From a virus (lineage: Duplodnaviria > Caudoviricetes): a stretch of 64,000 nucleotides of DNA. A program made the translations under genes and the position numbers. The notes below the pieces were generated by a model. It was not told the DNA's origin. It saw only the letters and a list, made by a program, of their open reading frames with translations, and made no database searches. Location: positions 8,448 through 72,447 of the IMG/VR virus record IMGVR_UViG_2511231028_000004; one strand, written 5' to 3'. Below are positions 3,428-55,609 of the stretch, in pieces (positions within the stretch are counted from its first letter, which is position 1; each line of letters begins with the position of its first letter).

Positions 3428-3480
3428 GTTTCCCGGAGAAATATTGCGGCTTGACTGGAATCATTTCCGGGGGAAATACT
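3428..3480 (+). promoter_or_regulatory. Right operator pair and PR-like promoter
   Basis: GTTTCCCGGAGAAAT (3428-3442) and ATTTCCGGGGGAAAT (3463-3477); TTGACT -35 at 3451 and AATACT -10-like at 3475. Confidence 0.75.
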
Positions 3481-3966: not shown

Positions 3967-4055
3967 GAGAATTTCCCGACAGGAACAGTGCAGCGTTGCG
4001 GAGCCGTGCTGCAAGTTCGATCGACAGCGTCGCGTTGCGTGAGAGGTGCGTCAGA

Positions 4056-4328
4056 ATGTCCATGGCCGAATCGTGCACATTGCCGCCGGTGCGGCCAAGG
4101 AGAACACGAAGAAATCGATTTCTTCGAAACCTCCGGCAAGAAAATCTTCCTCCATTCGGACGCGTCTGCGTCGCGCTATTCGGCATCGACAAGCCCGGTC
4201 TCGCGCTCGCGCAGAAGGCCGGCTGCACAACGCGCCAGGCTGATCTGTACATCGACGGCAGCACGCCGCCTTCTTACGAAGCGCTCATGGTCGTGCTCGA
4301 CGAGCTGCGGCCTCGGCGGCGCGGTTGA
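4056..4328 (+). CDS. Putative HTH regulator (cII position)
   Basis: GLALAQKAGCTTRQADLYIDG resembles an HTH; located after cro. Confidence 0.5.
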   Translation: MSMAESCTLPPVRPRRTRRNRFLRNLRQENLPPFGRVCVALFGIDKPGLALAQKAGCTTRQADLYIDGSTPPSYEALMVVLDELRPRRRG

Positions 4329-4333
4329 GATAA

Positions 4334-5088
4334 TTGACGGCCGGCATGCCCGGGGGAATGCAAATGTCGGCGACCGGATCGGCCGTACCCGGCGTCCCGC
4401 CCATCCGATGGATACGATATCCGGAGGTCCGACAGGCCCGTCATTCGAATGCCGTAGCGAAAGCAACCAGAGGCAAGTCCGATCGGCTGGCAAGCCACAT
4501 GGGCCCCGTAAGACCACGGTCAATCCCGGTCGGAAGGTTGTGAGTAGGCGCGACTGCCGCGCAGCAGTCTGCCCGCGGGGTGATGAGCCCCGCGGTTCAA
4601 TTCGGGAATACCCCAGAGGCGTCAGGTACAGCTCGCAAGGCTCCCTGCGGAAAGGCCGTACGCACCTCGGTGCCGATGACCGATCCCTCGCGGCACTCAG
4701 TGCGCGCCTCGACCTTTTTGCAGGGTGGAGCAGCCCGGTAGCTCGCAAGGCTCATAACCTTGAGGCCGTCAGTTCGAATCTGACCCCTGCAACCAATTTT
4801 CGCGGTGAGGCGGGCGGCGACGCTCGCAAACAACCATCTATGGCAACGCGGCTGATGCCACCGCGCCCGCGGAGCGAGATTTCAGTTTGGGCCGCCGTAG
4901 CTACAGCAGGTGCACCACGCGGGACTGCTGCATCCCGGCTCGCTTCAGCGGGCGCGGCCCAATTCAGTTCGGACGACGGCCTTGGCATCCATCAGCCCGG
5001 GTCAATGACACGGGGTACCAGAGCAAAGGTTCAAACTCCGTCGGGAAGGGCGCGTGATCGCGCTATGTGCCCCGCCGTCGTCCGGAGC
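4334..5088 (+). ncRNA. Candidate large structured ncRNA enclosing a tRNA
   Basis: No credible CDS; many nested perfect stems (4546-52/4703-09, 4573-80/4588-95, 4801-07/4859-65, 4887-95/4954-62, 4970-80/5074-84) and GNRA/UUCA-type loops. Confidence 0.55.
4719..4795 (+). tRNA. Phage tRNA-Met(CAT), initiator-type scaffold, CCA encoded
   Basis: TGCAGGG/CCCTGCA acceptor, GAGC/GCTC D stem, CAAGG-CTCATAA-CCTTG anticodon arm, GTCAG-TTCGAAT-CTGAC T arm, ACCA end. Confidence 0.92.
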
Positions 5089-5105
5089 TTTGCGGGGAGG
5101 GCGGC

Positions 5106-5633
5106 ATGAGCGAGGCCGACGGCGATATCAAGTTCGAGCCGGCCAACATGGGTCAGGCACTCGGCGTCCTGGTCGATGTCGTCGGCTGCTACATCAGCGC
5201 CGCGCACACGGCGGCATTTGCCGACGATCGCAAGAAGTCCGCGCAGGTCAACCTTACACTGTTCCTGCACGGCCTCTGCATGCGCTCGAAGTACAAGGCC
5301 GAGACGGCCGACATCCTGGACATGGTCAGCGCTGAGCTTCGCAGGTCGACGCAAGAGGAAGCGGGCGCCGATGCAATGACCGCTGATCTCTTGAAGCCAA
5401 ACGGCAATGACGGCGTGGTCAATGCCGAGATCTGCTTCGGTTCACTCCTGCTCGTCGGCGACGTCGACGTCTCCCCGGAGATGGTCGCGACATGGGCGCA
5501 GGATCAGATGGACCTCGCCTATGACTGGGCGATGCGCGTTCATCTGCATGCCAGCGACAACAACGACGTCTTCGTCCCCGAGCGACCCGACTTCATTCCG
5601 AGATCCGTGAGGCCATCCAGCACCGATAGCTGA
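5106..5633 (+). CDS. Hypothetical phage protein
   Basis: GGGGAGG Shine-Dalgarno before ATG 5106; typical codon usage. Confidence 0.65.
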   Translation: MSEADGDIKFEPANMGQALGVLVDVVGCYISAAHTAAFADDRKKSAQVNLTLFLHGLCMRSKYKAETADILDMVSAELRRSTQEEAGADAMTADLLKPNGNDGVVNAEICFGSLLLVGDVDVSPEMVATWAQDQMDLAYDWAMRVHLHASDNNDVFVPERPDFIPRSVRPSSTDS

Positions 5634-5752
5634 AATCCTCGCGCCCAGTTCAAGTAAGCGTCACCAGCGTATCCCGACATCACCCGCAATTGCACCCGTC
5701 CGGTCACTTCCGGACGTGAGCCTCTGCGTCCCTGCAACAGGAGGGCATCTCG

Positions 5753-5992
5753 ATGCTTGCCGACCAGTCGTTGCTTCACGCCGCCATTACCGCGTGCCTG
5801 GTTCACGTCCAGGTCGGTTCGCTGGTGTGGTTCTGGGTCTATTGCCGCGGGCGCCTGGTGCACGTCTACGCGACCGAGCTGACCGGCGCCGGCGACGTGC
5901 TCGACTTCATCGGCAACGCCCTGATCACGCTGGTGCTGATCTGTGGCTGGCCGTTCATGCTGATCGCGCTTCGCAAGGGCAAGCTGCAATGA
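5753..5992 (+). CDS. Small membrane protein
   Basis: 79 aa with two hydrophobic segments; GGAGG upstream. Confidence 0.6.
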   Translation: MLADQSLLHAAITACLVHVQVGSLVWFWVYCRGRLVHVYATELTGAGDVLDFIGNALITLVLICGWPFMLIALRKGKLQ

Positions 5993-6150
5993 CGAGCGCC
6001 GAACACGAGCGGCGCAGGCTGATCGAGCGCAATGCCTTGCGCGGCTATCGCGCCATGCCATCGGGTCCGTCCAAGGCGGATATGCAGCGCGATCTTGAGC
6101 AGGCCGTCCGCAACACCGCAGCGACTCCTGCGAAGGAGGAGCAAACATGA
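5989..6150 (+). CDS. Hypothetical phage protein
   Basis: MTSAEHERRR..., ATGA overlaps on both sides. Confidence 0.55.
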   Translation: MTSAEHERRRLIERNALRGYRAMPSGPSKADMQRDLEQAVRNTAATPAKEEQT

Positions 6151-6482
6151 TCCGCATCATCGACATCCTGGCGGCGCTGCTGCCCGTCATTCTCATCGTG
6201 ATCGCGCTGCTGCTGGTATGCGCGGTACGGATCGTCCGCCGAGGGGCCGCGTCCAGGTCTTCGCTTTCCGCGGCAGCGGACGATCCGTTCTTCTTTCCGT
6301 TCGGCGAGGTGCCGACCCTACCGCGCGAGCGCCAGATGGTGGCGCGCGACTTCCGTGCGTGGGGCATTCCTCTGCGCACCAAGCCTTCCGCAGGCGCCCT
6401 CCGGCGGAACGAGAACGGCGGCCGTCCCTCCTCCCTCTCGAGGACGGCCGTCGTTCTCACTTTTCGCAAGAGAGGTGCGTGA
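6147..6482 (+). CDS. Hypothetical membrane-anchored protein
   Basis: N-terminal hydrophobic helix; coupled start. Confidence 0.5.
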   Translation: MIRIIDILAALLPVILIVIALLLVCAVRIVRRGAASRSSLSAAADDPFFFPFGEVPTLPRERQMVARDFRAWGIPLRTKPSAGALRRNENGGRPSSLSRTAVVLTFRKRGA

Positions 6483-6817
6483 TGCAGCAACACCTCACCC
6501 GCATCGAGCAGGCCAACCTCATCGCGGGCCACGCCGTCTCCTACGCCACCGCCTATCTCGACGGGCGCCACAATGCGCAGCAGCTCGGCGACAACGCCGA
6601 CCGGCTTTTCCTCGATCTCCTGGTGGTCGAGACACCCGAGACCAGCACCTTCCTCATCCCGGTGCAGCTTCTCGTCATCACCATGATGCGCACGGCGAAG
6701 TGCGCGCGCGATCTCTCGCAATGGCCGTCGCGGGAGGATCGTTGGCAGTCCGTCATCGCTTCCCTTGTCGAGCTCGTCACCCACGAAAGCCGCCATCTTA
6801 CGAAGGACCGCGCATGA
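6482..6817 (+). CDS. Hypothetical phage protein
   Basis: MQQHLTRIEQ..., coupled start after GAGGTG. Confidence 0.65.
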   Translation: MQQHLTRIEQANLIAGHAVSYATAYLDGRHNAQQLGDNADRLFLDLLVVETPETSTFLIPVQLLVITMMRTAKCARDLSQWPSREDRWQSVIASLVELVTHESRHLTKDRA

Positions 6818-7149
6818 AGCCGCTCTCTCAGTCGCTGACGGAGCTGATCGTCTTCACCGAGGAAGTGGTGACGAAGCCGGCGCGCCATCATGGCCTTGCC
6901 GCCGATTTGCGGTTCACTTCGCTCGCCCAGGAGATCCGCGCCGCCGACCGTCGCCCCGCCAGCGAAGGCGTCCGCTGCACCCATGCCGGCATGGCGATCG
7001 TGGCCAGTACCGAAGGCTTTTTCGCCGGCGACATGGACCCGGGCTCGCGCTGGCTCGCCGCGATCGGCGCGCTCCTGCCGGCGCTGCGCGTCGAGGCCTG
7101 GCAGCAGGTGAAGAACGAGAAGGCGGCGACGCAGGAGACGCGGCGATGA
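6814..7149 (+). CDS. Hypothetical phage protein
   Basis: MKPLSQSL..., ATGA overlaps. Confidence 0.6.
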   Translation: MKPLSQSLTELIVFTEEVVTKPARHHGLAADLRFTSLAQEIRAADRRPASEGVRCTHAGMAIVASTEGFFAGDMDPGSRWLAAIGALLPALRVEAWQQVKNEKAATQETRR

Positions 7150-7571
7150 GCGTGCAGATCACCCACTATTCCGGCATTGATGGTACGCCGGCGGTCGCCT
7201 TGGCGCTGCGCGGCCAATACGAAATGATCAATGACGGCGGCGAGCAGGCCGTCGGCTTGCATCACAGCTACAATGGCATCTTGGCGTCTATCGATGGCAA
7301 GGCCGTTGGCGTCATCATCTGGTTCGAACAGAAGGACAGCCACCGGCTTTGGCTCCAGCTCGGCTATGTCCTGCCGGAGCATCGCCGGAACGGCATCTAC
7401 AATATGCTTTGGGATCAGTTGGTCGACAAGGCGCGAAAGCTGGGGGCCTCTGCGATCTGGAGCGGCACGGCGATCGGCAACGATGCGATGCGGGCCGTCG
7501 CGCGCAAACAGGGCCGGAAGGAAATCGCGGTCAGCCTGAAGTTCGACGTGCCGGAGCTGGCTCGACAATGA
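7146..7571 (+). CDS. GNAT-family acetyltransferase
   Basis: LGYVLPEHRRNGIYNMLW acetyl-CoA-binding motif A, followed by GNDAMRAV. Confidence 0.8.
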   Translation: MSVQITHYSGIDGTPAVALALRGQYEMINDGGEQAVGLHHSYNGILASIDGKAVGVIIWFEQKDSHRLWLQLGYVLPEHRRNGIYNMLWDQLVDKARKLGASAIWSGTAIGNDAMRAVARKQGRKEIAVSLKFDVPELARQ

Positions 7572-8185
7572 GCCCGCAAGCCCAGCCGCAGGCACAGGCC
7601 TATCCCCTGAATTGGCCGTCCGGCTTCCCGCGCTGGAAGCACGGCCGCGGCGCCGGCACATTCAAGACCAACTTCGAGACGGCGCTTCGCAACGTCAAGA
7701 AGAGCCTCGAGCTGTTCGCCAAGGACAGCGGCAAGAAGATCGAAAATCCGATTCTGTCGAGCAACATCGACTTCAACCCGCTAACCCACAACACCGGCAC
7801 CCGCCCGGCTGATCCCGGCGTCGCGGTCTGGTTTGCCTGGGACGGTCTTCAGGTCTGCATCGCGGTCGACCGCTATGACAGCCCGGCGGCGAATCTGCAG
7901 GCAATCCACCACATCATCGAAGCCCGCCGCGTTGAGCTGCGCCACGGCACGCTCGCGCTGGTGCGCGCGACCTTCTCCGGCTTCCAGGCGCTGCCGGCGC
8001 CGAAGGGCAAGCACTGGCGGGATATTCTGGAGATCGGCCATGGCGTGCTCGTCACCAAGGGCGCGATCGAGGGCAACTACAAGCGCCTGGCGCAGGCCTA
8101 TCACCCCGACCGCGAAGGCGGATCGATCGACAAGATGTCCGAGCTCAACGCCGCGCGCGATGCGGCCATCGCGGAGATCGGGTGA
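7568..8185 (+). CDS. Phage protein with a C-terminal J-domain (DnaJ-like)
   Basis: WRDILEI...YKRLAQAYHPDREGGS...MSELNAARD, with the HPD motif. Confidence 0.85.
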   Translation: MSPQAQPQAQAYPLNWPSGFPRWKHGRGAGTFKTNFETALRNVKKSLELFAKDSGKKIENPILSSNIDFNPLTHNTGTRPADPGVAVWFAWDGLQVCIAVDRYDSPAANLQAIHHIIEARRVELRHGTLALVRATFSGFQALPAPKGKHWRDILEIGHGVLVTKGAIEGNYKRLAQAYHPDREGGSIDKMSELNAARDAAIAEIG

Positions 8186-8397
8186 TGCGCCAGGATCCCG
8201 ACGAAGTCGCCCCGCTGGTCGACGCCCGCCTCGCCGAAGCGCTGCGGCAGGTCGGCCAGAGCCCGCTCGGCATGCCCGCAACCGTCGATACCTTCCGCGC
8301 CATGCTCGATCGCGCGGGGCTGGCTCTGGTGCTCAAGCACAATCCCGATTTTCGTCATTCCGGCCTGGAGCCGGTGAACATGGAGCATGACACATGA
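8182..8397 (+). CDS. Hypothetical phage protein
   Basis: 71 aa, coupled to the J-domain gene and to the DGR target. Confidence 0.55.
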   Translation: MMRQDPDEVAPLVDARLAEALRQVGQSPLGMPATVDTFRAMLDRAGLALVLKHNPDFRHSGLEPVNMEHDT

Positions 8398-9287
8398 ACG
8401 CAACTGCGAAGATTGAGGACGCCACACCGCTGCTCGCCAAGATCGACCCGGCGGCGCCGGTGCTCAAGGTCGAGGGCCTTGGCCGGTTGCAGATCAAGGC
8501 CGGCACGTTCTTCAACGGCGGCGGTTTCTCGGCCGACACCGAGGTGAAGATCACCTCGCTCGAGCCCGGGACCGACTATGTGGTGCGGATCTCGGGCGAC
8601 GGCCCGGTCGCCGTGCCCTATGCCAATCGAGGCGATGATCCGTTCATCGGTGGCTTTCACTTTGCACCAGGCGGCAATGCCGAGGCGCGCAAGGGCGGCG
8701 ACACCGTGCCGGCGATCAACCCGTACTCGCTCTGGGATCACAATTTCCGCCCCGCGTGCCTGGACCCGCGCGGCATGGTGCTGGTCGAAGCGCCCGGCCA
8801 TCGCTTCTGGTGCGATATCTACCTGACCGGCGCCGAGCATTTGGAGAACGGCACCAGCGCCTTCGACGCGCTGATCGCCGATGGCCGCGATTGCCCGACC
8901 GATCCGGCCACCGGGAGGCGGTTCAAGCGCTTCGACTACGCCGCGGCCTGCGCCGTGATGAAGCACCACGGCAAGCAGCTGCTGTCGTTCGAAGAGTTCG
9001 CCGCCGCAGCATTCGGCGTCACCGAGCGCACCGCGACGAACAGCGATCCGGTGCGAACCAACCTCGACGCCCCGCGCACCAGCAAGTTCGGCCTGATGCA
9101 GGCGGCCGGCAACATGTGGGTGTGGGGCCACGATGGCGATCCCGACGAGCCGCGCGCTTCGATCCTCGGCGGGTCCTGGTGGGTCGAGGGCGACGCGGGC
9201 TCGCGCCTCGCGGGCCTCGGCGACTGGGCGGACGACTCGGGCGAGAGCATCGGCGCCCGCGGCCGCAGTGACCACCTGCAAACCTGA
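8394..9287 (+). CDS. DGR target protein, Mtd-like C-type-lectin (FGE-type) fold with C-terminal VR
   Basis: GGFHFAPGG, SLWDHNFRP...DPRGMV, FWCDIYL, GNMWVW, ILGGSW...GARGRSD motifs as in Mtd-like proteins; VR in the last ~45 codons. Confidence 0.9.
   Translation: MNATAKIEDATPLLAKIDPAAPVLKVEGLGRLQIKAGTFFNGGGFSADTEVKITSLEPGTDYVVRISGDGPVAVPYANRGDDPFIGGFHFAPGGNAEARKGGDTVPAINPYSLWDHNFRPACLDPRGMVLVEAPGHRFWCDIYLTGAEHLENGTSAFDALIADGRDCPTDPATGRRFKRFDYAAACAVMKHHGKQLLSFEEFAAAAFGVTERTATNSDPVRTNLDAPRTSKFGLMQAAGNMWVWGHDGDPDEPRASILGGSWWVEGDAGSRLAGLGDWADDSGESIGARGRSDHLQT
9149..9272 (+). repeat. DGR variable repeat (VR) with GC-rich IMH
   Basis: Matches 9759-9882 except at 12 positions, all A in the TR; ends GGCGCCCGCGGCCGCAGTGAC. 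Confidence 0.97.
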
Positions 9288-9290
9288 TCC

Positions 9291-9310
9291 CGCGTCGCGA
9301 CAGCGACGCG
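9291..9310 (+). promoter_or_regulatory. DGR target-recognition hairpin/cruciform
   Basis: CGCGTCGC-GACA-GCGACGCG: 8-bp GC stem with a GRNA-type loop just after the target stop. Confidence 0.85.
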
Positions 9311-9334
9311 TCTCCTCGAGGTGAAGCGGATTCG

Positions 9335-9754
9335 ATGATCGTCAGGGACGACAATTCGGCGACGGAAGCCCTGGCGATCGTCGAGAAGTACGAGGCTTTC
9401 GTGACCTATCTCTATCCGATCCTGCAAAACAGTCCGCGCAAGCATGGCGTCCTCAGGGACACCGTGCTTGCCCAGATGTTCACGCCGATCGGAGGTCTCT
9501 ACCACGCGGCGAAGTCGCGGCAGATCTCGAGGCTGTTTGCGATCGATGCCGAGTTCGCCACGCTGCGCGCGCTGCTGCGTTTCCTGGCGCGCGGCGAGAT
9601 CAAGATCCTGACGCCGCATCAGCATGTCACCGCACTCGCGCTCCTGGCGCAGCCGGGCGGCATGCTGAACGCATGGCAGAAGAAGCTTGCGGCATCGGGC
9701 ACGAACAGGGTTCCGCACGCCGCCGGCGTGCGGAAGGGGGAGGCGGGGCAATGA
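9335..9754 (+). CDS. avd: DGR accessory variability determinant (four-helix bundle)
   Basis: IVEKYEAFVTYLYPILQNSPRKHG...GGMLNAW pattern; located between VR and TR. Confidence 0.88.
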   Translation: MIVRDDNSATEALAIVEKYEAFVTYLYPILQNSPRKHGVLRDTVLAQMFTPIGGLYHAAKSRQISRLFAIDAEFATLRALLRFLARGEIKILTPHQHVTALALLAQPGGMLNAWQKKLAASGTNRVPHAAGVRKGEAGQ

Positions 9755-9758
9755 TGTC

Positions 9759-9882
9759 GCCGCGCGCTTCGATCCTCGGCGGGTCCTGGTGGAACGAGGG
9801 CAACGCGGGCTCGCGCCACGCGAACCTCGACAACTGGGCGGACAACTCGAACGAGAACATCGGCGCCCGCGGCCGCAGTGAC
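9759..9882 (+). repeat. DGR template repeat (TR)
   Basis: Adenine-rich copy of the VR: 23 adenines, including 7 AAC codons in the VR frame. Confidence 0.97.
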
Positions 9883-10077
9883 GACGGCTCCGTGACTATC
9901 GCTCGGCACAGGCCACGGCCTCGCCGGCCGGTCACAGCACAACTGTGGTCAGCTCGACTCTCCTGCTTCGGCAAACACACTGCGCGGTCCGGCAGAGCGG
10001 GGCGTAGCGGCGGTTCAGCGCAGAACTGCCGTCGAGACCCGCGGCCGGCTTCAGCTGCAATTGGAATGGGGCTCGCA

Positions 10078-11076
10078 ATGACGCGACGCTACCGCAACCT
10101 CATCGGCAAGATCACCTCGCCCCGCAACATGGAGGCGGCGCTTCGCCTGACCGCCGCCGGCAAGCGGCTGACGCCTGACTATCTCGACTTCAAGGAATTC
10201 TCCGCGCTCAACCTCGCCGACCTCGGCCGGGACATGGCGAGCGGTCGTTATCGGGCCGGTGCGCCGCACGAATTCTTCATTCTCGACCCCAAGCGCCGGC
10301 TGATCCAGGCGCTGCCGTTCCGGGACCGGATCGCCCAGCAGGCGCTCTGCCTGGTCATCGGCCCGATCTTCGATGCTGCCATGCTGCCGCGCGCCTATGC
10401 CTGCCGGACCGGCAAGGGCACTCATGCCGGCGTCGTCCAGTTGCAAAGCGATCTGCGGCGGGAAGCGCGCGGCGGCGAGCTCCACTTCCTCAAGACCGAC
10501 TTTTCGCGCTACTTCGCCTCGATCGAGCGGGGCGTGCTGTGGCGGCTCATCGAGGCGAAGATCTCCTGCCGGGCGACGCTTGAGCTGATCGAGGCAATGG
10601 TGCCTCGGACGGGAACGGGACTGCCGATCGGCAGCCTGACCTCGCAAATTTTCGCCAACGTCTACGCCGGCGCCACGCTCGACCGTCATTTGCAGCAGCA
10701 TCTCGGCGAACGGCTCTGGTACCGCTACATGGACGATCTCGTCGTGCTCGGCCGCGAACCTGCGCATTTGCGCAGGTTGAAGGATGAGATCGAATCCTAC
10801 GCCGCGCGCGAGCTGGGCCTGCGCTTCTCCAAATGGCAGGTCTCCAGCGTCTCCCGCGGCATCAACTTCCTCGGCTACCGGATCTGGGCCAACCACAAGC
10901 TCTTGCGCCGAGACAGCGTCATCCGCGCCCGCCGCACCATCGCGGCCCTTCGAGCCCGCGGCGATGACGAGCGCCTGCGCGAATTCCTGGCCGCGTGGCT
11001 TGGTCACGCCAGCTGGGCCGACAGCGGCAATCTGATCAGGAGCCTCGGGTTGCCACAACAACGGGAGAACCGGTGA
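10078..11076 (+). CDS. DGR reverse transcriptase (frame open upstream to 9751 or further)
   Basis: MTRRYRNLIGKI start, PFRDRIAQQAL, LKTDFSRYFASI, GLPIGSLTSQIFAN, YRYMDD, INFLGY. Confidence 0.95.
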   Translation: MTRRYRNLIGKITSPRNMEAALRLTAAGKRLTPDYLDFKEFSALNLADLGRDMASGRYRAGAPHEFFILDPKRRLIQALPFRDRIAQQALCLVIGPIFDAAMLPRAYACRTGKGTHAGVVQLQSDLRREARGGELHFLKTDFSRYFASIERGVLWRLIEAKISCRATLELIEAMVPRTGTGLPIGSLTSQIFANVYAGATLDRHLQQHLGERLWYRYMDDLVVLGREPAHLRRLKDEIESYAARELGLRFSKWQVSSVSRGINFLGYRIWANHKLLRRDSVIRARRTIAALRARGDDERLREFLAAWLGHASWADSGNLIRSLGLPQQRENR

Positions 11077-12398
11077 TGGCCGATCGGTCGGCAATCGAAT
11101 GGACGGATGCCAGTTGGAATCCGATCCGCGCCCGCGTCATGGAGATCCAGAACGACGGCTCCGGTAGAGAGCGCATCGGATGGCACTGCGAGCACGTCAG
11201 CGACGGTTGCCGCAACTGTTATGCGGAGGGCTTCAACCGGAGACTTGGCACTGGCCGGGACTTTAAACCGGGGGAGATGTTTCGTGAGGAACACAAAGGC
11301 TTCAACAACGGCGAGGTGAAGCTGTTCCTCGATGAGCAGATGTTGACCCAGCCGCTTCGCTGGAAGAAGCCTCGCAAGATCTTCGTTTGCTCAATGACGG
11401 ACGCCTTCGCGGACTTCGTCACCGACGAGATGCTCGACAAGATGTTCGCCGTCATGGCGCTGTGCCCGCAGCATACGTTCCAGGTGCTGACGAAGCGCGC
11501 GAAGCGGATGCGGGCATATATGGAACGGCTGTTCGGCTCGAAGGTCGCGCCGCGAGGCATTGCCTGTTCGCCGTGGAGCGCGCTGCTAAACCGCGCCGAA
11601 CGAAGCTGGATGGTGGCTAACCCGAACTACATGACCGACATCCGGCCGTTACTGCTTGCGGGCTTGCAGGGCCGCACGCTTCCTTCCGGGCCCCTCCCGA
11701 ACGCCTGGCTCGGCATCTCGGCCGAGCGGCAGCAGGAAGCAAATGAGCGGATTCCGGAGCTGCAGAAGACGCCGGCTGCGGTCCGCTTCGTCTCGCTTGA
11801 GCCGCTGCTGGGCCCGATCGACCTCGAGGACATCGTTCGCCACGGCGACGGGTGCGAGGACCACCACAGCGCGCTCGAATGCGACGTCGCCATCGAGGAC
11901 GACCAGGAATTCCACGGCGCCGTACTCGACTGGGTCATTGTCGGTGGCGAGAGCGGCAACCGCGCTCGCCCGATGCACCCGGATTGGGTGCGGGGCCTTC
12001 GCGATCAGTGCGACCGAAACGACACGGCGTTTTTCTTCAAGCAGTGGGGCGAATGGGGTATGCCGACCGATGATCTCGGCAACCTCGACTGGCCCTATCA
12101 TCCCGATCACGATCGCACGCACTGGTTTGACCGTCGCAGCTGTGTTCGACCGATCGAGAGCGGATGGTCAGATAAGTACCAATGTGGTGGCGGAGCGTAT
12201 CCGCCGCCGCCATTCGATCTTTTCCAGACGCCCGACTACCTCGACCAGGTCGCGCGCTGTCCGCAGTGCGGCTGCGGTGAAGCCAAGAAGTGTCAGGGAA
12301 ACGCCGCTCGCGCGGCAGTCACATGGGTAGGCAAGAAAAAGGCCGGTCGCCTCCTCGACGGAGCCGAGCATAACGCATTCCCGAAGGTGCCGGGATGA
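11076..12398 (+). CDS. Phage Gp37/Gp68 (DUF5131-like) protein
   Basis: SAIEWTDASWNP, CEHVSDGCRNCYAE (Cx6Cx2C), IFVCSMTD, RFVSLEPLLGP, WVIVGGESG, FFFKQWG. Confidence 0.88.
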   Translation: MADRSAIEWTDASWNPIRARVMEIQNDGSGRERIGWHCEHVSDGCRNCYAEGFNRRLGTGRDFKPGEMFREEHKGFNNGEVKLFLDEQMLTQPLRWKKPRKIFVCSMTDAFADFVTDEMLDKMFAVMALCPQHTFQVLTKRAKRMRAYMERLFGSKVAPRGIACSPWSALLNRAERSWMVANPNYMTDIRPLLLAGLQGRTLPSGPLPNAWLGISAERQQEANERIPELQKTPAAVRFVSLEPLLGPIDLEDIVRHGDGCEDHHSALECDVAIEDDQEFHGAVLDWVIVGGESGNRARPMHPDWVRGLRDQCDRNDTAFFFKQWGEWGMPTDDLGNLDWPYHPDHDRTHWFDRRSCVRPIESGWSDKYQCGGGAYPPPPFDLFQTPDYLDQVARCPQCGCGEAKKCQGNAARAAVTWVGKKKAGRLLDGAEHNAFPKVPG

Positions 12399-13630
12399 GC
12401 GACCTTCGCCGCATCGATCCAAAACCGTTCCTGCCGCGCATCCCGAAGGGCCCGAAGCCCGACGTCGGCGAGCGTCCGGAACTGCAATGGCTCAAGATCG
12501 ACCGCTTGCGCATCGATCCGCGCTATCAGCGCGAGATCGGCCGACGCGGTGCCGACAACATCGTCGCGATCGTGCCGAAGTTCAAATGGGCCAAGTTCAC
12601 GCCCGTGGTGGTGGCGCCGATCGGCGAGGGCCTGTTCGCCGTCATCGACGGCCAGCATCGCGCCACGGCCGCCGCTGCGTGCGAATTCGAGAGCGTGCCC
12701 TGCGTCATCATCCAGGTCGACCAGGCCGATCAGGCCGATGCCTTCGTCGCCATCAACGCCAACGTCACTGCGATGTCGCCGCTGCAACTGCATGCTGCGC
12801 GCCTGGCTGCCGGCGATAAAATCGCCGACGAACTGACGCAAGCCTGCGAGGCGGCCGGCGTCAGCATCTGCCGCTATCCGGTGCCGGCGAACAAGATGAA
12901 GCCGGGCGAGACGCTGGCGGTCGGCATGCTGCAATCGGCGCTGGCCAAATATGGACGCGACGTCCTGGTCGCCGCGCTGTCCTGCGTCACCAAGACCCGC
13001 AAGGGCAATCCCGGCATGATCCGCAAGGCGATTGTGCAGGCGTTGTGCTCCGTGATCGAGGCTGACCGGGAATGGCTCGGCGATCTGCCGCGACTGATTT
13101 TCGCCATGCAGACCTTCGACTTCGCCGCGCAGTTCAACCGCGCGTCGGCGGCGGCGATCGAAAGCGGCGAGGGCGTTGCCGCGCTGCTGATCGACGCGAT
13201 CGCCGCCCATCTTGATGGCAAGTTCGAAGCTTCAGTCCCTGCGGAGGCGGCCGAAGAGGTCACGACGCCTCGCAGGGACGGAAAGGCTCCGGTGCGGGCG
13301 GCAAAATCAGCGCCGATCGAGCCTCCGGTGGCCAAGGCTCCCGGCCGTCCATCCGCCACCGGTCCGGTCACGATCGGGCGCGACTTCATCAGCCGCGGCG
13401 GCCGGCGCATCGAGGTCGCTCCGCGCGCTGCGCTGCTCTTCGCCGCCGTGCACAAGGCGATGCCGAATTGCGTCGGTGACGAATGGCTGGTCTCTAAACT
13501 CTGGACGGTACGTCCGCCGAATGCCGGCGATCTGATCGACCAGATCGTCCGCAATCTCGACCTTGCCAGTCTCGGGCTCGAGATCCGCACCCACCGCGGC
13601 GTCGGCCGCCAACTGGTCGAGGTGGCATGA
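12395..13630 (+). CDS. ParB-like N-terminal domain protein with a probable C-terminal winged helix
   Basis: LRIDPRYQR...FAVIDGQHRATAA ParB-like motif; C-terminal segment LEIRTHRGVGRQL. Confidence 0.7.
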   Translation: MSDLRRIDPKPFLPRIPKGPKPDVGERPELQWLKIDRLRIDPRYQREIGRRGADNIVAIVPKFKWAKFTPVVVAPIGEGLFAVIDGQHRATAAAACEFESVPCVIIQVDQADQADAFVAINANVTAMSPLQLHAARLAAGDKIADELTQACEAAGVSICRYPVPANKMKPGETLAVGMLQSALAKYGRDVLVAALSCVTKTRKGNPGMIRKAIVQALCSVIEADREWLGDLPRLIFAMQTFDFAAQFNRASAAAIESGEGVAALLIDAIAAHLDGKFEASVPAEAAEEVTTPRRDGKAPVRAAKSAPIEPPVAKAPGRPSATGPVTIGRDFISRGGRRIEVAPRAALLFAAVHKAMPNCVGDEWLVSKLWTVRPPNAGDLIDQIVRNLDLASLGLEIRTHRGVGRQLVEVA

Positions 13631-14703
13631 CGCTGCTCGCCGCCTACGATCGCGCATGCCGGTCTCTCGCCGAGGTCAAGGACGCCGGCGAAGTCGTGCA
13701 GATCCACGACCTTTTCGAGCACGTCAAGCTCTATGCCAGACAGATCCAGGACAAGGCGCTGCTCGAAGAAGCCGTCGTTGCGCAGATGCGAGCCGACAGG
13801 CGCCTGGGCGAGATCATCGGTGCGCTCAAGGAAGCCGGCAGGATCTCGGACGGTCGCAAGCCGAAAGACGATGGCTCCGACCGCGTCACCCTGAAGGACA
13901 TCGGCGTCAAGGACTGGAAGCTCTCGTCACGGGCCCAGAAGGCGGCCGCGCTGTCCCCGGACGCATTCAAGCAGATCGAGGAGGCCGCGCGCCAGAAGGT
14001 TCGCGGCGGCGGCGCCATCCTGGTCGATCCGATTCAATCGGCTGCGAAGGAGGCCGAGATCGCCGGCCGCCGCGCCGCGCATGCGGCGCGCGCCGAGACC
14101 GGCGGCTGTGTCGCGGACCTGGAAGCTCTTGTCGCATCGGGCTTCCGCGCAGGCTTCGTCGGCATGGACCCCCAATGGCATTTCAAGACCCGTTCCGATG
14201 CAGGCGAGGGGCGGTCCGCCGGAATCCACTACAAGACGGAAGAGATCGAGAAGATCAAGAATATTCCAGTCGGCGCGATAGGCGCGGACGATTCGGCGAT
14301 CGGCATGTGGACGGTCGACTGGTGCCTCGAGGCCGCCTTCGCGCTGATGCGCCATTACGGCTATGAGCCCGTCACCAAGCTCTACACCTGGGCCAAGACC
14401 AATAACGATGGCAAGTTGCTCGCCCACGATGATTCCAGCTGGCACCTCGGCATGGGGTATTGGACGCGTGCCAACCCGGAGGATTGCTGGCTCGGAATCC
14501 GCGGCAAACCGAAGCGGCTCTATGCCGACGTCCGTCAGCTGATCGTTGCGCCTTTGATGGAGCACTCTCGCAAGCCCGATGAGTGGCTCGCGCGCTCCGA
14601 GCGCCTGGTCGAGGGCCCCTATATCGAATTGAACGCGCGGCGTCCTCGGAAAGGCTGGTTCAGCTGGGGGGACGAGCTCGAATGGACGGGGGTGGCAGCA
14701 TGA
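13627..14703 (+). CDS. MT-A70-family adenine methyltransferase
   Basis: DPQW (DPPW-like), MGYWTRANPEDC, HSRKPD, IELNARRPRKGWFSWGDE. Confidence 0.85.
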   Translation: MTLLAAYDRACRSLAEVKDAGEVVQIHDLFEHVKLYARQIQDKALLEEAVVAQMRADRRLGEIIGALKEAGRISDGRKPKDDGSDRVTLKDIGVKDWKLSSRAQKAAALSPDAFKQIEEAARQKVRGGGAILVDPIQSAAKEAEIAGRRAAHAARAETGGCVADLEALVASGFRAGFVGMDPQWHFKTRSDAGEGRSAGIHYKTEEIEKIKNIPVGAIGADDSAIGMWTVDWCLEAAFALMRHYGYEPVTKLYTWAKTNNDGKLLAHDDSSWHLGMGYWTRANPEDCWLGIRGKPKRLYADVRQLIVAPLMEHSRKPDEWLARSERLVEGPYIELNARRPRKGWFSWGDELEWTGVAA

Positions 14704-15246: not shown

Positions 15247-15468
15247 ATGACGCGAAGACTTCCGTTCTTCAACGCGCACAGCATCTCCATCGGAACGTGC
15301 TCCGATCCGTTATGCAGGGCCGTCCATGTTCATCTGCTCGACGAAGACGAGCGCCCGCATGCACAGCTCACGCTGAACTGCGACAAGCTCGAAGACGTGA
15401 TCGCCGACCTGCGCTCCGTTCGCGACCGCATTGTCATGGGCGGCGCAAAGAAGGGGCTCGACAATTGA
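15247..15468 (+). CDS. Hypothetical protein (possible Zn-binding)
   Basis: 73 aa with CSDPLC...HVH. Confidence 0.55.
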   Translation: MTRRLPFFNAHSISIGTCSDPLCRAVHVHLLDEDERPHAQLTLNCDKLEDVIADLRSVRDRIVMGGAKKGLDN

Positions 15469-15815
15469 TCCGACGCCACCGCCTCGCCAATCGCCGTCGC
15501 CATGAAACCATCGCGATCGAGCACGAAGGCCAGCGCTACAAGGTCGGGCTCGGCAGGGAACTGCTCTGCGACGGCAGCTGCGGCGGGTCGGTGCGCTACG
15601 GTCCGATCGCAGAAGTCTTTATCACGGCGCAGAAGGTCAACACGCAGGCCGACGTTCTGGCGAAAGATGGCGCCATCCTGATGTCGCTGGCCCTGCAATT
15701 CGGCTGTCCGCTGGACGTCATTGCCCACGCCATGAAGCGCAACCCCGATGGCTCGCCGGCCTCGCCGCTGGGGCGGGCTGCGGCTTACCTGGTCGAGGAG
15801 AACTCGAATGTCTGA
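15465..15815 (+). CDS. Stand-alone TSCPD-like domain protein (resembles the C-terminus of class II RNR)
   Basis: RLANRRRHETIAI...IAEVFI...DGAILMSLALQFGCPL; TTG start overlapping the upstream stop. Confidence 0.6.
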   Translation: MIRRHRLANRRRHETIAIEHEGQRYKVGLGRELLCDGSCGGSVRYGPIAEVFITAQKVNTQADVLAKDGAILMSLALQFGCPLDVIAHAMKRNPDGSPASPLGRAAAYLVEENSNV

Positions 15816-16332
15816 CACCGAATGGTATCCGGCCGATTGGGTTGACGAGACATGCCCGCCGGCGAAGAAAGCACCTGCCGAATATATTGTGCCGATCGAG
15901 ACTGGCTTCGAGCTCGGATATGTCCGCACCGGCGATGCCGCAGCGGCGAAGTTCGCCGCGCACTACAACACGATCTACAATCAGCCCCTGTCGCTCGGCG
16001 ACGTCGTGGATTTCATCAGCTGCGAGCGCCTCGGCGACGTGGATGTGACGCTGCGGCGCGACGGGACCTATGTCCTGCATGGGACGCTTCCGCGCGTTTA
16101 CAACGCCCTGATCGTCGACGGCGATATCGATACGCTTTGCGACAGCTTCGAGGAGATGACGCGGCGCATCCAGGGTCGCGGGTGGGACGAACTCGGTACA
16201 CTCCTTCTGACCGACGTCGACGAACGCCGTATGAGCATGAGCTTTGCGAATTGGTCGGACCCCGTGCCGTACCTCTTCGAGATTGTCGACGGCAAACCCG
16301 TGTTCACTCCTGTGCCGGTGGCGAAGCAATGA
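15808..16332 (+). CDS. Hypothetical phage protein
   Basis: MSDTEWYPAD..., GAGGAG Shine-Dalgarno. Confidence 0.65.
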   Translation: MSDTEWYPADWVDETCPPAKKAPAEYIVPIETGFELGYVRTGDAAAAKFAAHYNTIYNQPLSLGDVVDFISCERLGDVDVTLRRDGTYVLHGTLPRVYNALIVDGDIDTLCDSFEEMTRRIQGRGWDELGTLLLTDVDERRMSMSFANWSDPVPYLFEIVDGKPVFTPVPVAKQ

Positions 16333-16493
16333 CCGACATCGAGCGCCAGATACTCCTCAACCAGATCGCCATCCTCGAGGCGCTGATGCCGCACGGCTCG
16401 GCCGGCCCTGAAGGTACGCGCGAGATCCTGCGCAAGCGCTACCGCGAGAGCGCCGAACTCGTCCGCCAACACTCACCCAACCCGCAACGCTGA
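16329..16493 (+). CDS. Hypothetical phage protein
   Basis: MTDIERQILL..., ATGA overlap. Confidence 0.5.
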   Translation: MTDIERQILLNQIAILEALMPHGSAGPEGTREILRKRYRESAELVRQHSPNPQR

Positions 16494-16508
16494 AGGGAAT
16501 CCGCCGCC

Positions 16509-18488
16509 ATGGATATCAAGGTCCCGCTGAAGATGCTCAAGTTCGGCCACGAGGACGGCGAGGGCATCAACGCCCGCGTCGCCGGCCGGGAAGACGGCAT
16601 CGCCGCGCTCGCCGCGAACATCTTCGCCAACCGGTCGGACGATAACCCCTCCGGCCTGATCGAGAACCTGATCGTCAAGGACGCAGGCGAGGGCTTCTAT
16701 TCGGTCGCCAACGGCAACCGCCGTCTCGCAGCGCTGCGCATGATCGAGGCCGAAGGCTCGGAGATGCCGGTCCCCTGCACCATGCACCAGGTCGACGAGA
16801 CCAAGGCCTTCGAATATTCGCTAACCACGGCGATCACCGCCGAGCAGCTCCACCCGGTCGACCAGTACGAGGCTTTCGCCCGCCTCGAGGAGCACGGCAA
16901 GACGCAGGAGGAGATCGCCCAGCAATACGGCATGGCGGGAAAGCAGGTCCGCCAGGCGCTGGCGCTGGGGCGGCTCAGCCCGAGGATCCGCGACGCCTGG
17001 CGCAAGGGCGATATCAAGGCGGAAGTTGCCCAGGCCTTCACGCTCGCGCTCGACCACGGCACGCAGGACAAGCTGTTTGCCCAGCTCGACAAGGCCCATG
17101 CCGTCACCGTGCACAACGTCAAGCGCGAGCTCGGCGCCTACGCCACGGACGAAGAGATCACGCAGCTGCTCGATGTCATTGGCGCCGAGGCGTACCAGTC
17201 TGCCGGCGGCATTGTCACCGTCGACCTCTTCGGTAAATCCCACATCATCAGCGACGAGGCGCTGCTGAAGCATCTGGCGCGGCAGCTGCTGATCTCGAAG
17301 TGCGAGGAGCTGACCTCGGCAGGCTGGGGCTGGGCGGAAATCCTGGCCGATCTGCCCTCCGGCGCGCGGCACTGGCCCATCTCGGAGGTCAAGACGAAGA
17401 TCTTCGAGGGCGACGAAGAGCAGCGGCTCGAACAGATCCGGGCCCGGTTGACCGCGATCGACGAAGAAGACGAGGCCAGCGATACTATCATCTCCGAAGA
17501 GACCGAGCAGGAGCAGGATCGCCTCGCGAGCGAGGCCGATACGATCGACCAGGCGGTCAAGCTCCGCAGCTACCCCGACAAGAAGCGCAAAACGCTCGGC
17601 TGCATCGTCACGATCGAGGACGGCCGGCTGATCGTGCTCGCCGGCATCAAGCGCCCTGAGGAAGCCAGGGCGCCGCAGTCCCGGAACGACGACGACATCG
17701 GCCCGGCAGGACCTGCCGCGACGTCCGCACCAGCTGCGAAAGCCGCTCCCGAAGAGCCGGAGATCTCCAATGCGCTGCTGCATCGTCTCTCGGTCCAGCT
17801 CACCCAGGCGGCCTCGACCGCATTGATCCAGGACACGCCCCTGGCGCTCGCGGTCCTGCTCGCCGGCTTCGACACCTACGGCGGCAAGGGCGTCAAGGTT
17901 TCCGTCAGCGGCCTCGGCATGGGCGGCGCGCCCGGCAAGCTGTTCGGGCAGCCCGACGACCTTCCGCGCACGCTGGCCCTCGCCAGCAAGCTCAAGCCCG
18001 CCGAGAAGCTGGACCTCCTGGTCCAGGTCGCCGCCGGCGCGCTCGACTTCCAGAACAAGAGCCTCGACGGCGGCGCCGACCAGCACGATTCCATCGTCTC
18101 GATCTGCAACGCGATCGAGCCCAAGGCCTTGAACGCGGCGCTGCGCGGCGCCTTCGACGCCAAGGACTATTTCGCCGGCGTCAACAAGGCGCTGTGCCTC
18201 AAGGCGATCGAGGAAGCCCTGGGCCCCGACCTTGCCCGCCAGCAGGCCAAGAATCCGAAAGCGGAGATCGCTGCGTTCGCATTCGAGAATGTCCCCACCA
18301 CCGGCTGGCTGCCGCTTCAGCTGCGGGCGAAGGGCTATGACGGGCCGCCGGTGAAGAAGCCGGCCGGCAAGCTGGCAGCGGCGCCGGCGAAGGCGAAGAA
18401 GTTCGCCAAGGCTGCGGCCAAGTCCGCGCCGAAGAAGCCCGCGAAGAAGCCCGCCAAAAAGCCGGCAAAGAAGCGAAAGGCCGCGTGA
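16509..18488 (+). CDS. ParB/Spo0J-family protein with a Lys/Ala/Pro-rich histone-like tail
   Basis: GLIENLIV...VANGNRRLAAL, LHPVDQYEAF, HTH VRQALALGRL; ends KKPAKKPAKKPAKKRKAA. Confidence 0.88.
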   Translation: MDIKVPLKMLKFGHEDGEGINARVAGREDGIAALAANIFANRSDDNPSGLIENLIVKDAGEGFYSVANGNRRLAALRMIEAEGSEMPVPCTMHQVDETKAFEYSLTTAITAEQLHPVDQYEAFARLEEHGKTQEEIAQQYGMAGKQVRQALALGRLSPRIRDAWRKGDIKAEVAQAFTLALDHGTQDKLFAQLDKAHAVTVHNVKRELGAYATDEEITQLLDVIGAEAYQSAGGIVTVDLFGKSHIISDEALLKHLARQLLISKCEELTSAGWGWAEILADLPSGARHWPISEVKTKIFEGDEEQRLEQIRARLTAIDEEDEASDTIISEETEQEQDRLASEADTIDQAVKLRSYPDKKRKTLGCIVTIEDGRLIVLAGIKRPEEARAPQSRNDDDIGPAGPAATSAPAAKAAPEEPEISNALLHRLSVQLTQAASTALIQDTPLALAVLLAGFDTYGGKGVKVSVSGLGMGGAPGKLFGQPDDLPRTLALASKLKPAEKLDLLVQVAAGALDFQNKSLDGGADQHDSIVSICNAIEPKALNAALRGAFDAKDYFAGVNKALCLKAIEEALGPDLARQQAKNPKAEIAAFAFENVPTTGWLPLQLRAKGYDGPPVKKPAGKLAAAPAKAKKFAKAAAKSAPKKPAKKPAKKPAKKRKAA

Positions 18489-27220: not shown

Positions 27221-27329
27221 TGCATAGGGTGTGCGGTAGCGCGGTTCGTTGCCGCTGCCCTCCTTGGGCGTTTCCTCCCTAGACTTGGGGCGCCTCTTCG
27301 GAAGCGGCCTGATCTTTCCCCGGTGATCG

Positions 27330-36696: not shown

Positions 36697-37236
36697 GTGA
36701 TCGACCCGTCTGCGCAAATCCACCGGCTTGCGCTGGTTGAGGATTCCGAGATCGGTCCGCGGAGCCGCGTCTGGCAGTTCGCCAGCGTGATCCGGGGGAC
36801 CGTTCTCGGCGCCGACTGCAACGTCGCATCCTGCGCGACGCTCGACGGGCCCGTCTTCGGCGACCGCTGTATCATTTCGCAGGGCGCTGCGATGGGACCC
36901 GGGTTTCGGTTCGGCAGCGACATCTTCGTCGGGCCGAACGTCACGATCTGCAATGACCGCTGGCCGCGTGTGAGCAAGTCCGGATTCGACGCAGAGGCGT
37001 TCCGGCGCGGCGACTTCACCGTAGTGGTGAAGGATGGCGCCACGATCGGGGCGAACGCCGTGGTGTTGCCGGGCGTGATCATCGGCAAGCGGGTCATGGT
37101 CGCCGCCGGCGCGGTGGTCGATCGCGATATTCCGGACGACCACCTGTTCCGGCGCGACGGCCGGATAACACCTTTCAACCCGCGACGCAGTCCGCAGCGC
37201 ATGCGCATCGTGCTGATGCGGCAGGAGGTGGCGTAA
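36697..37236 (+). CDS. Hexapeptide-repeat (left-handed beta-helix) sugar acetyltransferase
   Basis: IGPRSRVWQFASV, IFVGPNVTICND, ATIGANAVVLPGVIIGKRVMVAAGAVVDRD. Confidence 0.88.
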   Translation: MIDPSAQIHRLALVEDSEIGPRSRVWQFASVIRGTVLGADCNVASCATLDGPVFGDRCIISQGAAMGPGFRFGSDIFVGPNVTICNDRWPRVSKSGFDAEAFRRGDFTVVVKDGATIGANAVVLPGVIIGKRVMVAAGAVVDRDIPDDHLFRRDGRITPFNPRRSPQRMRIVLMRQEVA

Positions 37237-37850
37237 TGCTGACGGTCGCCACGCTGCTTTGGGACCCGAACGAGGCCTCGCTGCCGTTCTCGCGCTGCTA
37301 TGACGAGTCCTGGGTGCGCAAGCTCCACGACGGCTTCGACCGGCACCTGAAGCAACCGTTCCGGTTCGTGTTGTTCACCGATCGTGACCGGCGGCTGCCG
37401 GCGCATATCGAGCAGGTCCGGATGAAGGCGAAGCCCCCGGACTATTCGTCCTGCATCGAGCCGTATCGGTTCGGCGTGCCGATGATCCTGGTCGGTCTCG
37501 ACACGATCATCACGGGTCCCATCGACCATCTGGCCAATTACTGCTTGAACGCCTCGACCATCGCTTTGCCGCGCGATCCCTTCATGCCATCGCGCGCATG
37601 CAACGGCGTGGCGCTGATTCCGGAAGGGCAGCAGCACGTCTGGCGCAACCACCGCGGCGAAAACGATATGGAATGGATGAGGGCGCAGGATCACGTCTTC
37701 ATCGACGATTTGTTTCCCGGGCAGGTGCAGAGCTTCAAGGGCCATGTCCGTGACCGTGGGCTGGCCGATACCCGGATTTGCTACTTTCACGGTGAGCAGA
37801 AGCCGCACCAGCTGCCACACGTGCCGTGGATCGCGGAGCATTGGCGATGA
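37236..37850 (+). CDS. Putative glycosyltransferase (GT-A-like)
   Basis: FRFVLFTD, ILVGLDTIITGPID (DxD-like), CNGVAL, ICYFHGEQKPH. Confidence 0.65.
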   Translation: MLTVATLLWDPNEASLPFSRCYDESWVRKLHDGFDRHLKQPFRFVLFTDRDRRLPAHIEQVRMKAKPPDYSSCIEPYRFGVPMILVGLDTIITGPIDHLANYCLNASTIALPRDPFMPSRACNGVALIPEGQQHVWRNHRGENDMEWMRAQDHVFIDDLFPGQVQSFKGHVRDRGLADTRICYFHGEQKPHQLPHVPWIAEHWR

Positions 37851-38038
37851 AGGTTGAAGATTGCTTCGTCAATGAGCGCGGGAATGCGATCAGAATGGTC
37901 GTAACCGGCGGGGGATCGTTGTCGACTTCGGTGAAGATATTCATGGCTGGCCCAACTAGCACGGTGACCAACGAAATCACCTTGATGGAAGCGCGGCGCT
38001 TGCGTGATCTTCTTAATGAGGTTGTCGGACAGCAATGA
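37847..38038 (+). CDS. Hypothetical protein
   Basis: 63 aa, ATGA overlap. Confidence 0.5.
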   Translation: MKVEDCFVNERGNAIRMVVTGGGSLSTSVKIFMAGPTSTVTNEITLMEARRLRDLLNEVVGQQ

Positions 38039-38676
38039 CCTCACGGGAGCTCGAATACTGGTCGCCCGAACCCCTGTTCAAGGGCGAGACGATCTTCTGC
38101 CTGGCGTCGGGTCCGAGCCTGACCGCGGACATCTGCGCGCGCATCCGTGGGCGCAGGACGATCGCGATCAACTCCAGCGCCGTGTTGGCGCCATGGGCCA
38201 GCGTCCTCTTCTTCACCGATTCCAGCTGGTATGAGGCGCGGCGCGATCTGGTGGCGAACTGGTGCGGCCTCGTGATCTCGATGTCGCGCACCGCCAAGCG
38301 AGAATTGCCGGACAAGGTCAAGCGGGTGCAGGGCGAGGGCGACCCGCAGGCACTGCCGGGCTTCAGCCGCGGCCCGCATGTGATCCAGCAGGGCCGGTCC
38401 AGCGGGCACACGGCGGTGAGCCTTGCGATCGCGCTCGGCGCTTCGCGGGTGGTTCTACTCGGCTACGACATGCGTTTCGTCGCCGGCCGCGAGCACTGCC
38501 ATGACGAGTACAAGGGCTCAGCGCGCGATGCCGAGATCTACAGCCGCGAGTTTGTGCCGGGCTTCGCTGGCTGGGATGAGGCCGCGCGCGCGGTCGGCGT
38601 CGAGGTCGTCAACGCGACCGAGGGCAGCGCGGTGAAGGAATTCCGGTTCGCGCCACTGGACGATGTGCTGAGGTGA
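38035..38676 (+). CDS. Maf/DUF115-like (sialyltransferase-like fold) protein
   Basis: CLASGPSL, IAINSS, SSGHTAVSLAIALGASRVVLLGYDM, VVNAT. Confidence 0.7.
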   Translation: MTSRELEYWSPEPLFKGETIFCLASGPSLTADICARIRGRRTIAINSSAVLAPWASVLFFTDSSWYEARRDLVANWCGLVISMSRTAKRELPDKVKRVQGEGDPQALPGFSRGPHVIQQGRSSGHTAVSLAIALGASRVVLLGYDMRFVAGREHCHDEYKGSARDAEIYSREFVPGFAGWDEAARAVGVEVVNATEGSAVKEFRFAPLDDVLR

Positions 38677-55605: not shown

Positions 55606-55609
55606 TGCC

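Follow-up and report, generated by a model that had tools for sequence, protein, structure and literature searches.

A complete diversity-generating retroelement with an anchor-less Mtd-type target outside the tail module of a temperate phage

We analysed a 64,000-nt stretch of a temperate tailed phage (IMG/VR record IMGVR_UViG_2511231028_000004, positions 8,448 to 72,447; in the following the window), which carries on its plus strand a diversity-generating retroelement (DGR). The locus is well supported as a complete DGR of the type known from Bordetella phage BPP-1, arranged in the order target, avd, template repeat (TR) and reverse transcriptase (RT), and the comparison with related loci suggests that it was active recently. 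Its target is a 297-residue homologue of the BPP-1 protein Mtd, which consists of the β-sandwich and the C-type lectin (CLec) domain and lacks the N-terminal β-prism, and its gene is located far from the tail genes. We regard a virion-associated, hypervariable receptor-binding adhesin that joins the particle in trans as the most likely identity of this target, an assignment that we hold with about even confidence. The window is contained in a contig of 90.9 kb from a draft genome of 7.8 Mb, and the names of the closest homologues assign the prophage host to Bradyrhizobium.

Anatomy and activity of the retroelement

All parts of the DGR are present and intact, as the original prediction had it, and the elements it had listed (a GC-rich site of initiation of mutagenic homing (IMH), a hairpin with GRNA loop, avd and an RT with YMDD motif) could each be located by coordinates, by a profile match or by folding. 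The target gene (8394-9287, +) contains the variable repeat (VR, 9149-9272, +), which encodes the last ~45 residues of the protein. Between the two repeats lies avd, the accessory variability determinant (9335-9754, +; Pfam bAvd, E 2.4e-25; 39% identity to BPP-1 Avd), followed by the TR (9759-9882, +) and, between TR and RT, by a DGR RNA spacer element (9901-10049, +), which is a full-length match to the Rfam model RF03022 Phage_DGR with 83.5 bits (gathering threshold 50; E 8.5e-13). The RT gene (10066-11076, +; start at 10066 or 10078; Pfam RVT_1, E 1.2e-16) has the YMDD motif at 10726-10737, and its product shows 52% identity to BPP-1 Brt over 320 residues. The target sites of phage DGRs are described as depending on a (GC)14 element of the IMH, which is required in BPP-1, and on a hairpin with a GC stem of 7-10 bp and a 4-nt GRNA loop at a distance of 4-34 bp from the VR (PMC3240598). 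Measured by these criteria (PMC3240598), a 16-nt run composed of G and C only at the VR 3' end (9251-9266, +; with its copy in the TR at 9861-9876) matches the (GC)14 element as IMH core, and a hairpin/cruciform element 3' of the VR and of the target stop codon (9291-9310, +), folding as DNA into an 8-bp GC stem with the loop GACA, fits the GRNA pattern. An open frame on the plus strand (9673-11076) continues from inside avd through TR and spacer into the RT, which may be due to chance at 67% G+C.

The restriction of the VR/TR differences to adenines, which had been claimed from the sequence, is borne out by a base-by-base comparison: the repeats differ at 12 of 124 nucleotides, and all 12 mismatches fall on adenines of the TR (10 A>G and 2 A>T). 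The repeat finder delimits the two copies at 9149-9275 and 9759-9885, offset by 610 nt and being the sole long direct repeat in the region, and position 9273, the first mismatch at a site other than A, sets the end of the repeat. The TR has 23 adenines, 14 of which are within seven AAC codons when read in the VR frame; the remaining A-bearing codons are ATC, GAG, CAC, GAC and AGT. Because the A-bearing codons comprise only AAC and these five, no substitution of a TR adenine can yield a stop codon, and our codon check agrees with the earlier count of adenines and AAC codons as well as with the statement that no stop is reachable. The search for remote VRs proposed in the original prediction gave no further copy of TR or VR in the whole 7.8-Mb genome.

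By the mechanism shown in BPP-1, a complex of RT and Avd would copy the TR-spacer RNA into cDNA, thereby misincorporating opposite the 23 template adenines, and the G/C-rich IMH together with the GRNA hairpin would then direct the mutated cDNA to replace the VR. As outcome, ~16 surface residues on the CLec face of a trimeric Mtd-like binder would be rewritten.

For comparison we examined 13 loci encoding the short Mtd form, i.e. the window, a syntenic prophage of a Bradyrhizobium strain (L051), an IMG/VR contig (L002), seven loci in six genomes of the same bacterial family, and L054, L055 and L056, the latter being a JGI metagenome contig. The TRs of the window and of L051 are 96.9% identical, and outside the VR their mtd genes share 76% identity. 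The two TRs differ at four non-A sites, and each VR bears the base of its own TR at all four of them; as these lineage-specific TR bases are mirrored in the cognate VR, transfer from TR to VR must have occurred after the window and L051 had split. In most of the related loci compared, the TR/VR differences are limited to TR adenines as well, with L024 and L030 adding a few non-A differences, and L002 and G122_C1 have two diversified VRs per TR. Recent activity of the DGR is well supported by these patterns, from which it appears to have retrohomed within its own lineage.

The same data bear on the cassette being an inactive relic or neutral passenger, i.e. a decaying hitch-hiker encoding a truncated Mtd that has no current function. 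Decay might be seen in the metagenomic phage L056, which is syntenic with the early region of the window and encodes a short mtd and a separate avd (4021-4425 and 10001-10897), with no adjacent RT called in the 21 kb shown; its DGR may be decaying or rearranged. In G371_C5 (L026) and G052_C16 (L028) a second short-Mtd paralogue is encoded beside DUF5131 on the strand opposite to the DGR, at a distance of 9-12 kb from it, and no TR-matching VR was detected in these second paralogues. The window itself presents a different picture: all parts are intact, TR and VR show not a single non-A difference, the VR has taken over lineage-specific changes of the TR, and over hundreds of members the length of ~300 residues is constant and the scaffold strongly conserved. 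We consider it highly improbable that the cassette is a relic.

The target and its short-form clade

The target had been predicted to be Mtd-like, and its residues 15-295 align to residues 58-378 of Mtd (PDB 1YU3, E 7.2e-48), covering both the β-sandwich and the CLec domain. It furthermore matches the Pfam family mtd_2nd (PF21916, E 4.8e-8) and phrog_11262 'tail protein' (E 1e-109), the latter only at profile positions 63-392/393. The sequence analysis agrees with the original prediction that the protein has no signal peptide and no long fibre shaft. An AlphaFold2 model of the monomer, calculated from a 30-sequence alignment, has a mean pLDDT of 57 and is confident for the sandwich domain only, leaving the CLec domain unresolved. 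The start codon is preceded by GGAG 8 nt upstream and overlaps, in the form of ATGA, with a 71-residue open reading frame (ORF; 8182-8397). The translational coupling to this ORF proposed earlier is not conserved, the overlap being replaced by a 52-nt gap in L051, the Mtd of which is 73% identical. Two genes upstream of mtd, the ORF 7568-8185 (+) encodes a member of phrog_9210 that weakly matches the J-domain (DnaJ, E 1e-3), an arrangement that is retained in L051 and not in more distant relatives.

A word-indexed search returned 915 target homologues at E <= 1e-10. Nearly all of the best 120 of these have a length of 297-330 residues and 56-75% identity, and they originate from Bradyrhizobium, Afipia, Pseudolabrys, Rhizomicrobium and metagenomes. 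In an exhaustive search of 50%-identity representatives, ~15-20 of 543 clusters contain the short form, while nearly all other clusters (<= 48% identity) have 100-700 extra N-terminal residues, with the match starting at query residue ~13-16. The short form therefore represents the bare Mtd module preceded by a 12-residue leader. Among the N-terminal extensions of the long forms, Pfam recognises DUF2793, collagen, Mtd_N and tail repeats. From these comparisons the short Mtd proteins of ~300 residues appear as a distinct clade of hundreds of sequences from Bradyrhizobium, Afipia, Pseudolabrys and Rhizomicrobium and from soil and water metagenomes. A pattern scan of genome contigs gave no match.

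The diversification expected from the TR is visible across this clade. In an alignment of 117 short-form homologues, on which all entropy figures are based, the entropy reaches 3.2 bits at the AAC-templated positions compared to 0.41 bits at the other VR positions and 1.33 bits in the rest of the protein. The AAC-templated positions are dominated by D, S, N, Y and G, and L14, K16 and D18 are invariant or nearly so.

Location of the cassette and role of the target

The target gene lies ~5 kb into a rightward operon, counted from the immunity switch, and 17 kb upstream of a NusG-like gene. This corresponds to the accessory operon in which it had been placed by the original prediction, downstream of the cI/cro-like switch and upstream of NusG-like gene and terminase, and the gene order suggests that the cassette genes are early genes. 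The distance to the tail genes, predicted as ~40 kb, is 32-46 kb when measured along the prophage map, and fibre-like genes are present in the tail module itself, which contains no VR copy, as stated before. We considered this distance being an artefact of prophage permutation and rejected it: on the excised circle the shortest path from the last fibre gene to mtd, which leads via lysis genes, att, integrase and immunity region, still measures ~18 kb, so that the separation does not result from the cut site.

The surroundings of the cassette are similar in its relatives. In most of the 13 loci its neighbours are MT-A70, C5 or other methyltransferases, ParB-like genes and DUF5131. In at least five loci (L002, L051, G122_C1, G371 and G052) DUF5131 is the gene immediately after the RT or after a second Mtd paralogue. 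The cassette of relatives is situated upstream of replication genes or of NusG-like, HNH or terminase genes, and a Rhizomicrobium locus has it between immunity region and integrase. The sole case abutting tail genes is G380, a borderline one, in which the cassette is followed by a 919-residue gene product of no known identity, a tail-collar-fibre-like gene and a sheath gene. A conserved small adaptor gene beside the cassette was rejected, as clustering of the neighbouring ORFs in nine loci gave only avd, mtd/RT, MT-A70, C5 methyltransferase, ParB and DUF5131.

Between the loci Mtd is 56-64%, Avd 65-78% and RT 70-80% identical. TerL, portal and capsid proteins of the same loci show 24-37% identity to those of the window or are undetectable, and G371 and G380 have sheath genes, being of myovirus type, as opposed to the sheath-less phage of the window. 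With Mtd, Avd and RT retaining 56-80% identity across unrelated backbones, it is well supported that the cassette is portable, and it appears to have settled as a unit in the plastic early/pre-late region of diverse temperate phages. Its position would be explained most simply by this portability rather than by a need for early Mtd.

We favour a model according to which the short Mtd would be made separately and would join the virion in trans, acting there as hypervariable receptor-binding adhesin. The sole characterised relative is a receptor binder of the tail tip (PMC5758913), and many of the longer proteins containing the Mtd module are fused to fibre-like N-terminal parts and encoded in tail modules. 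The adhesin role is furthermore suggested by the Mtd homology itself in combination with the binding-site-like residue usage at the AAC-templated positions, and by G380, in which the cassette abuts the tail-collar-fibre-like gene and the sheath gene. A weak hint comes from two long forms, P0240 (44% over 102 residues) and P0136 (53% over 32 residues), which have shaft parts homologous to residues ~140-285 of the fibre-like protein encoded at 49326-51260 in the window, this shared shaft domain sitting directly N-terminal to their Mtd module. As a Rosetta-stone argument this is weak because the domain is widespread in virion proteins, including head-decoration and fibre proteins of many phages.

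Several observations weigh against an adhesin joining the virion in trans. The target gene is located outside the tail or late structural operon, and none of the 13 short-form loci, which belong to sipho- as well as myovirus-type prophages, lies inside a tail module. The N-terminal β-prism, regarded as the attachment of the Mtd trimer to the tail fibre (PMC10743442), is absent from the target, the alignment of which begins at Mtd residue 58 so that the prism (Mtd residues 1-57) is left out and which has no Mtd_N match in Pfam, and Mtd residues 1-60 gave no tblastn match in the genome. The 71-residue ORF 8182-8397 was rejected as split-off prism, its similarity to Mtd having an E value of 0.35 and Pfam or PHROG matches being absent. 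In place of the prism there is the 12-residue leader, which is highly variable among the 117 short forms (2.95 bits). The loci of the relatives contain no homologues of the three fibre genes of the window, and the occurrence of one and the same short protein alongside tail modules that are not homologous makes it difficult to propose a specific docking partner. Among the cultured phages of the phage collection, none carries the short form. Finally, all five longer, N-terminally extended forms examined are encoded in structural modules: BPP-1 Mtd after the fibre gene bbp9, the extended Mtd of Marinomonas P12026 at the end of the tail genes, that of S-CBS3 between head and tail genes, Rpal_0689 between P2-type baseplate/fibre genes and sheath and tube genes, and P0123 in the order long Mtd, avd, RT and lysis genes.

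The search for an attachment of another kind gave the following results. A gene split by frameshifting was rejected, as no slippery heptamer is seen just upstream of the ATGA overlap and the homologue of the 71-residue ORF in L002 follows the RT. The tail proteins of the phage have no Mtd_N match, and neither window nor genome encodes a Bbp9-like docking partner. Apart from mtd, avd and brt, the genes of BPP-1, including the fibre gene bbp9, have no credible homologue, the sole other tblastn match being bbp1 with E 0.008 over 50 residues. Across the family, N-terminal extension and residence in a structural module go together, and the non-tail placement of the short form is conserved across its clade and correlates with the loss of the N-terminal anchor.

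In a second reading, the short Mtd trimer would not be part of the virion at all: made early, it would act inside the cell as binder, the diversified face of which recognises changeable host defence or restriction proteins or proteins of competitor phages, so that the DGR would serve counter-defence within an anti-restriction island. In favour of it are the coincidence of anchor and tail-module location across the Mtd family, a target having neither signal peptide nor anchor domain, and the consistent placement of the gene, across 13 loci of differing virion types, in the company of genes for methyltransferases, ParB-like proteins and DUF5131 and ahead of the NusG-like gene and the terminase. 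Cytoplasmic DGR targets moreover exist in cellular conflict systems (PMC10907252). This support is, however, purely associative. Virion proteins do not have signal peptides either, the receptor bound by the closest characterised relative is on the cell surface, the position of the cassette can be accounted for by the whole unit being mobile, and the G380 cassette adjoins tail genes. An intracellular binder hence seems rather unlikely to us, though it is the alternative that we would take most seriously.

A receptor-binding fold without anchor, encoded outside the tail module, would also suit a free extracellular factor. The trimer would then be freed at lysis and act as soluble lectin on host receptors, for instance by masking those on debris or on neighbouring lysogens, with its diversification tracking the same surface variation as the virion fibres. 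Such a factor has no known precedent, selection would couple a variant gene only weakly to its diffusible product, and no sequence feature indicates it specifically, so that we judge it improbable. The adhesin acting in trans therewith remains the reading that we prefer.

The prophage surrounding the cassette is intact and comprises 65,242 bp. It is integrated in tRNA-Thr(TGT), is bounded by att repeats and has an integrase. The right repeat, attR (62522-62568), is a 47-bp perfect repeat of the 3' part of tRNA-Thr, and its partner attL lies 2.7 kb beyond the left end of the window, separated by 55 nt from the tyrosine integrase gene. Adjoining the integrase, a 677-residue C5 DNA methyltransferase is encoded on the minus strand at 1-1258, continuing left of the window (contig 15256-17289), and is identified by the motifs FAGGGG and GNSVCPP. 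Homologues of this methyltransferase adjoin the DGR cassette in G122_C1, G122_C2, G052, G228 and the Afipia locus L054. Three small ORFs on the plus strand (168-395, 408-656 and 765-1055) were rejected as companions of the cassette, being shadow frames of the methyltransferase gene. In map order a divergent cI-like/cro-like pair follows (Pfam/PHROG). The sole sigma-70-like promoter match (3451-3480) is located just upstream of the cro-like ORF, and consensus scans for promoters and terminators found sites no more frequently than in shuffled controls. The leader of the rightward operon contains a tRNA-Met(CAT) (4719-4795, +), placed after the cro-like gene and before the first small genes, and an array of small genes (5067-8397, +) leads into the DGR.

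Downstream of the DGR the neighbours of the cassette (11076-14703, +; Pfam and PHROG) encode DUF5131, a ParB-like protein and an MT-A70 methyltransferase, which are not parts of the DGR and belong to the same families that flank the cassette in relatives. The DUF5131 (Gp37/Gp68) gene (11076-12398, +) overlaps with its start the RT stop (11074-11078). After the MT-A70 methylase the map continues with a second ParB-like gene, a primase, two more methylases, a primase/helicase and the NusG-like antiterminator homologue (26290), which is located upstream of the terminase. Between NusG-like and small terminase genes there is a match to the suhB/mmgR small RNA family (27250-27324, +; Rfam, 58.4 bits, gathering threshold 41). 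The late genes are ordered as TerS, TerL, portal, protease, capsid, a glycosyltransferase group, adaptor, tail terminator, tube, tape measure, Dit, J-like, three fibre-like genes and an endolysin-like gene. The glycosyltransferase group, located between capsid and connector genes (36697-38676, +), consists of an acetyltransferase-like gene, a glycosyltransferase (phrog_1962) and a sialyltransferase-like gene (phrog_4603). The J-like protein and the three fibre-like genes (49326-51260, 51300-53420 and 53437-55605) span 47755-55605. At this distal end of the tail module (52000-56000) the G+C content falls to 0.59-0.61, and the last ORF, 53437-55605 (+; 722 residues), has no Pfam or PHROG match and may be a recently acquired fibre or spike gene. 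As no sheath gene is seen in the prophage, we classify it as a siphovirus-type element.

Comparison with known systems

Phage DGRs are taken to diversify receptor binders of the tail tip, and surveys class Mtd-like targets as tail proteins (PMC5758913, PMC8144416). The DGR described here belongs to this well-known kind, while no description of the anchor-less Mtd clade and its conserved site outside the tail module was found in the searchable literature. If the target is an adhesin, Mtd trimers would be recruitable to very different virions without a dedicated anchor, an insight that would help to understand and to engineer receptor-binding modules. If it acts off the virion, targeted hypermutation of phages would serve a purpose beyond adsorption and thereby represent a new use of DGRs; inside the cell, it would constitute a hypermutating counter-defence or host-takeover factor in a clade of alphaproteobacterial temperate phages. 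The locus is well preserved and tractable, and as the prophage is intact and resides in a culturable genus that is non-pathogenic, the function of the target can be tested directly.

Three known systems can be compared with the window. Cellular DGR targets of multicellular bacteria with cytoplasmic CLec sensors (PMC10907252) resemble it in having a diversified CLec domain without export signals and provide a precedent for intracellular binders. In contrast to the target, which lacks such domains, these putative antigen sensors are multidomain conflict proteins of STAND NTPase type, which are encoded on chromosomes and not by phages and are not homologous to Mtd. Long-form Mtd fibres, such as Rpal_0689 of Rhodopseudomonas palustris TIE-1 and the DUF2793-Mtd proteins, share the same module of sandwich and CLec domain with 35-48% identity. 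They differ in their N-terminal extensions of 100-700 residues and in being encoded in tail modules, with or without a DGR, whereas the window encodes the bare module outside of it.

The third system is the DGR of BPP-1 (mtd-avd-TR-brt; Mtd structures PDB 1YU0-1YU4). BPP-1 is a podovirus that shares no other gene with the siphovirus-type prophage of the window, its Mtd has the N-terminal β-prism that is missing from the target, and its cassette ends the structural operon after bbp9, whereas the cassette of the window is located among DNA-modification genes ~5 kb from the cI/cro-like switch. Within the cassette, both have the same gene order, with 52% identity for RT, 39% for Avd and 36-37% for Mtd, and both combine 23 TR adenines including AAC codons with a G/C-rich IMH, a GRNA hairpin, a DGR RNA and a target made of the Mtd sandwich and CLec domain.

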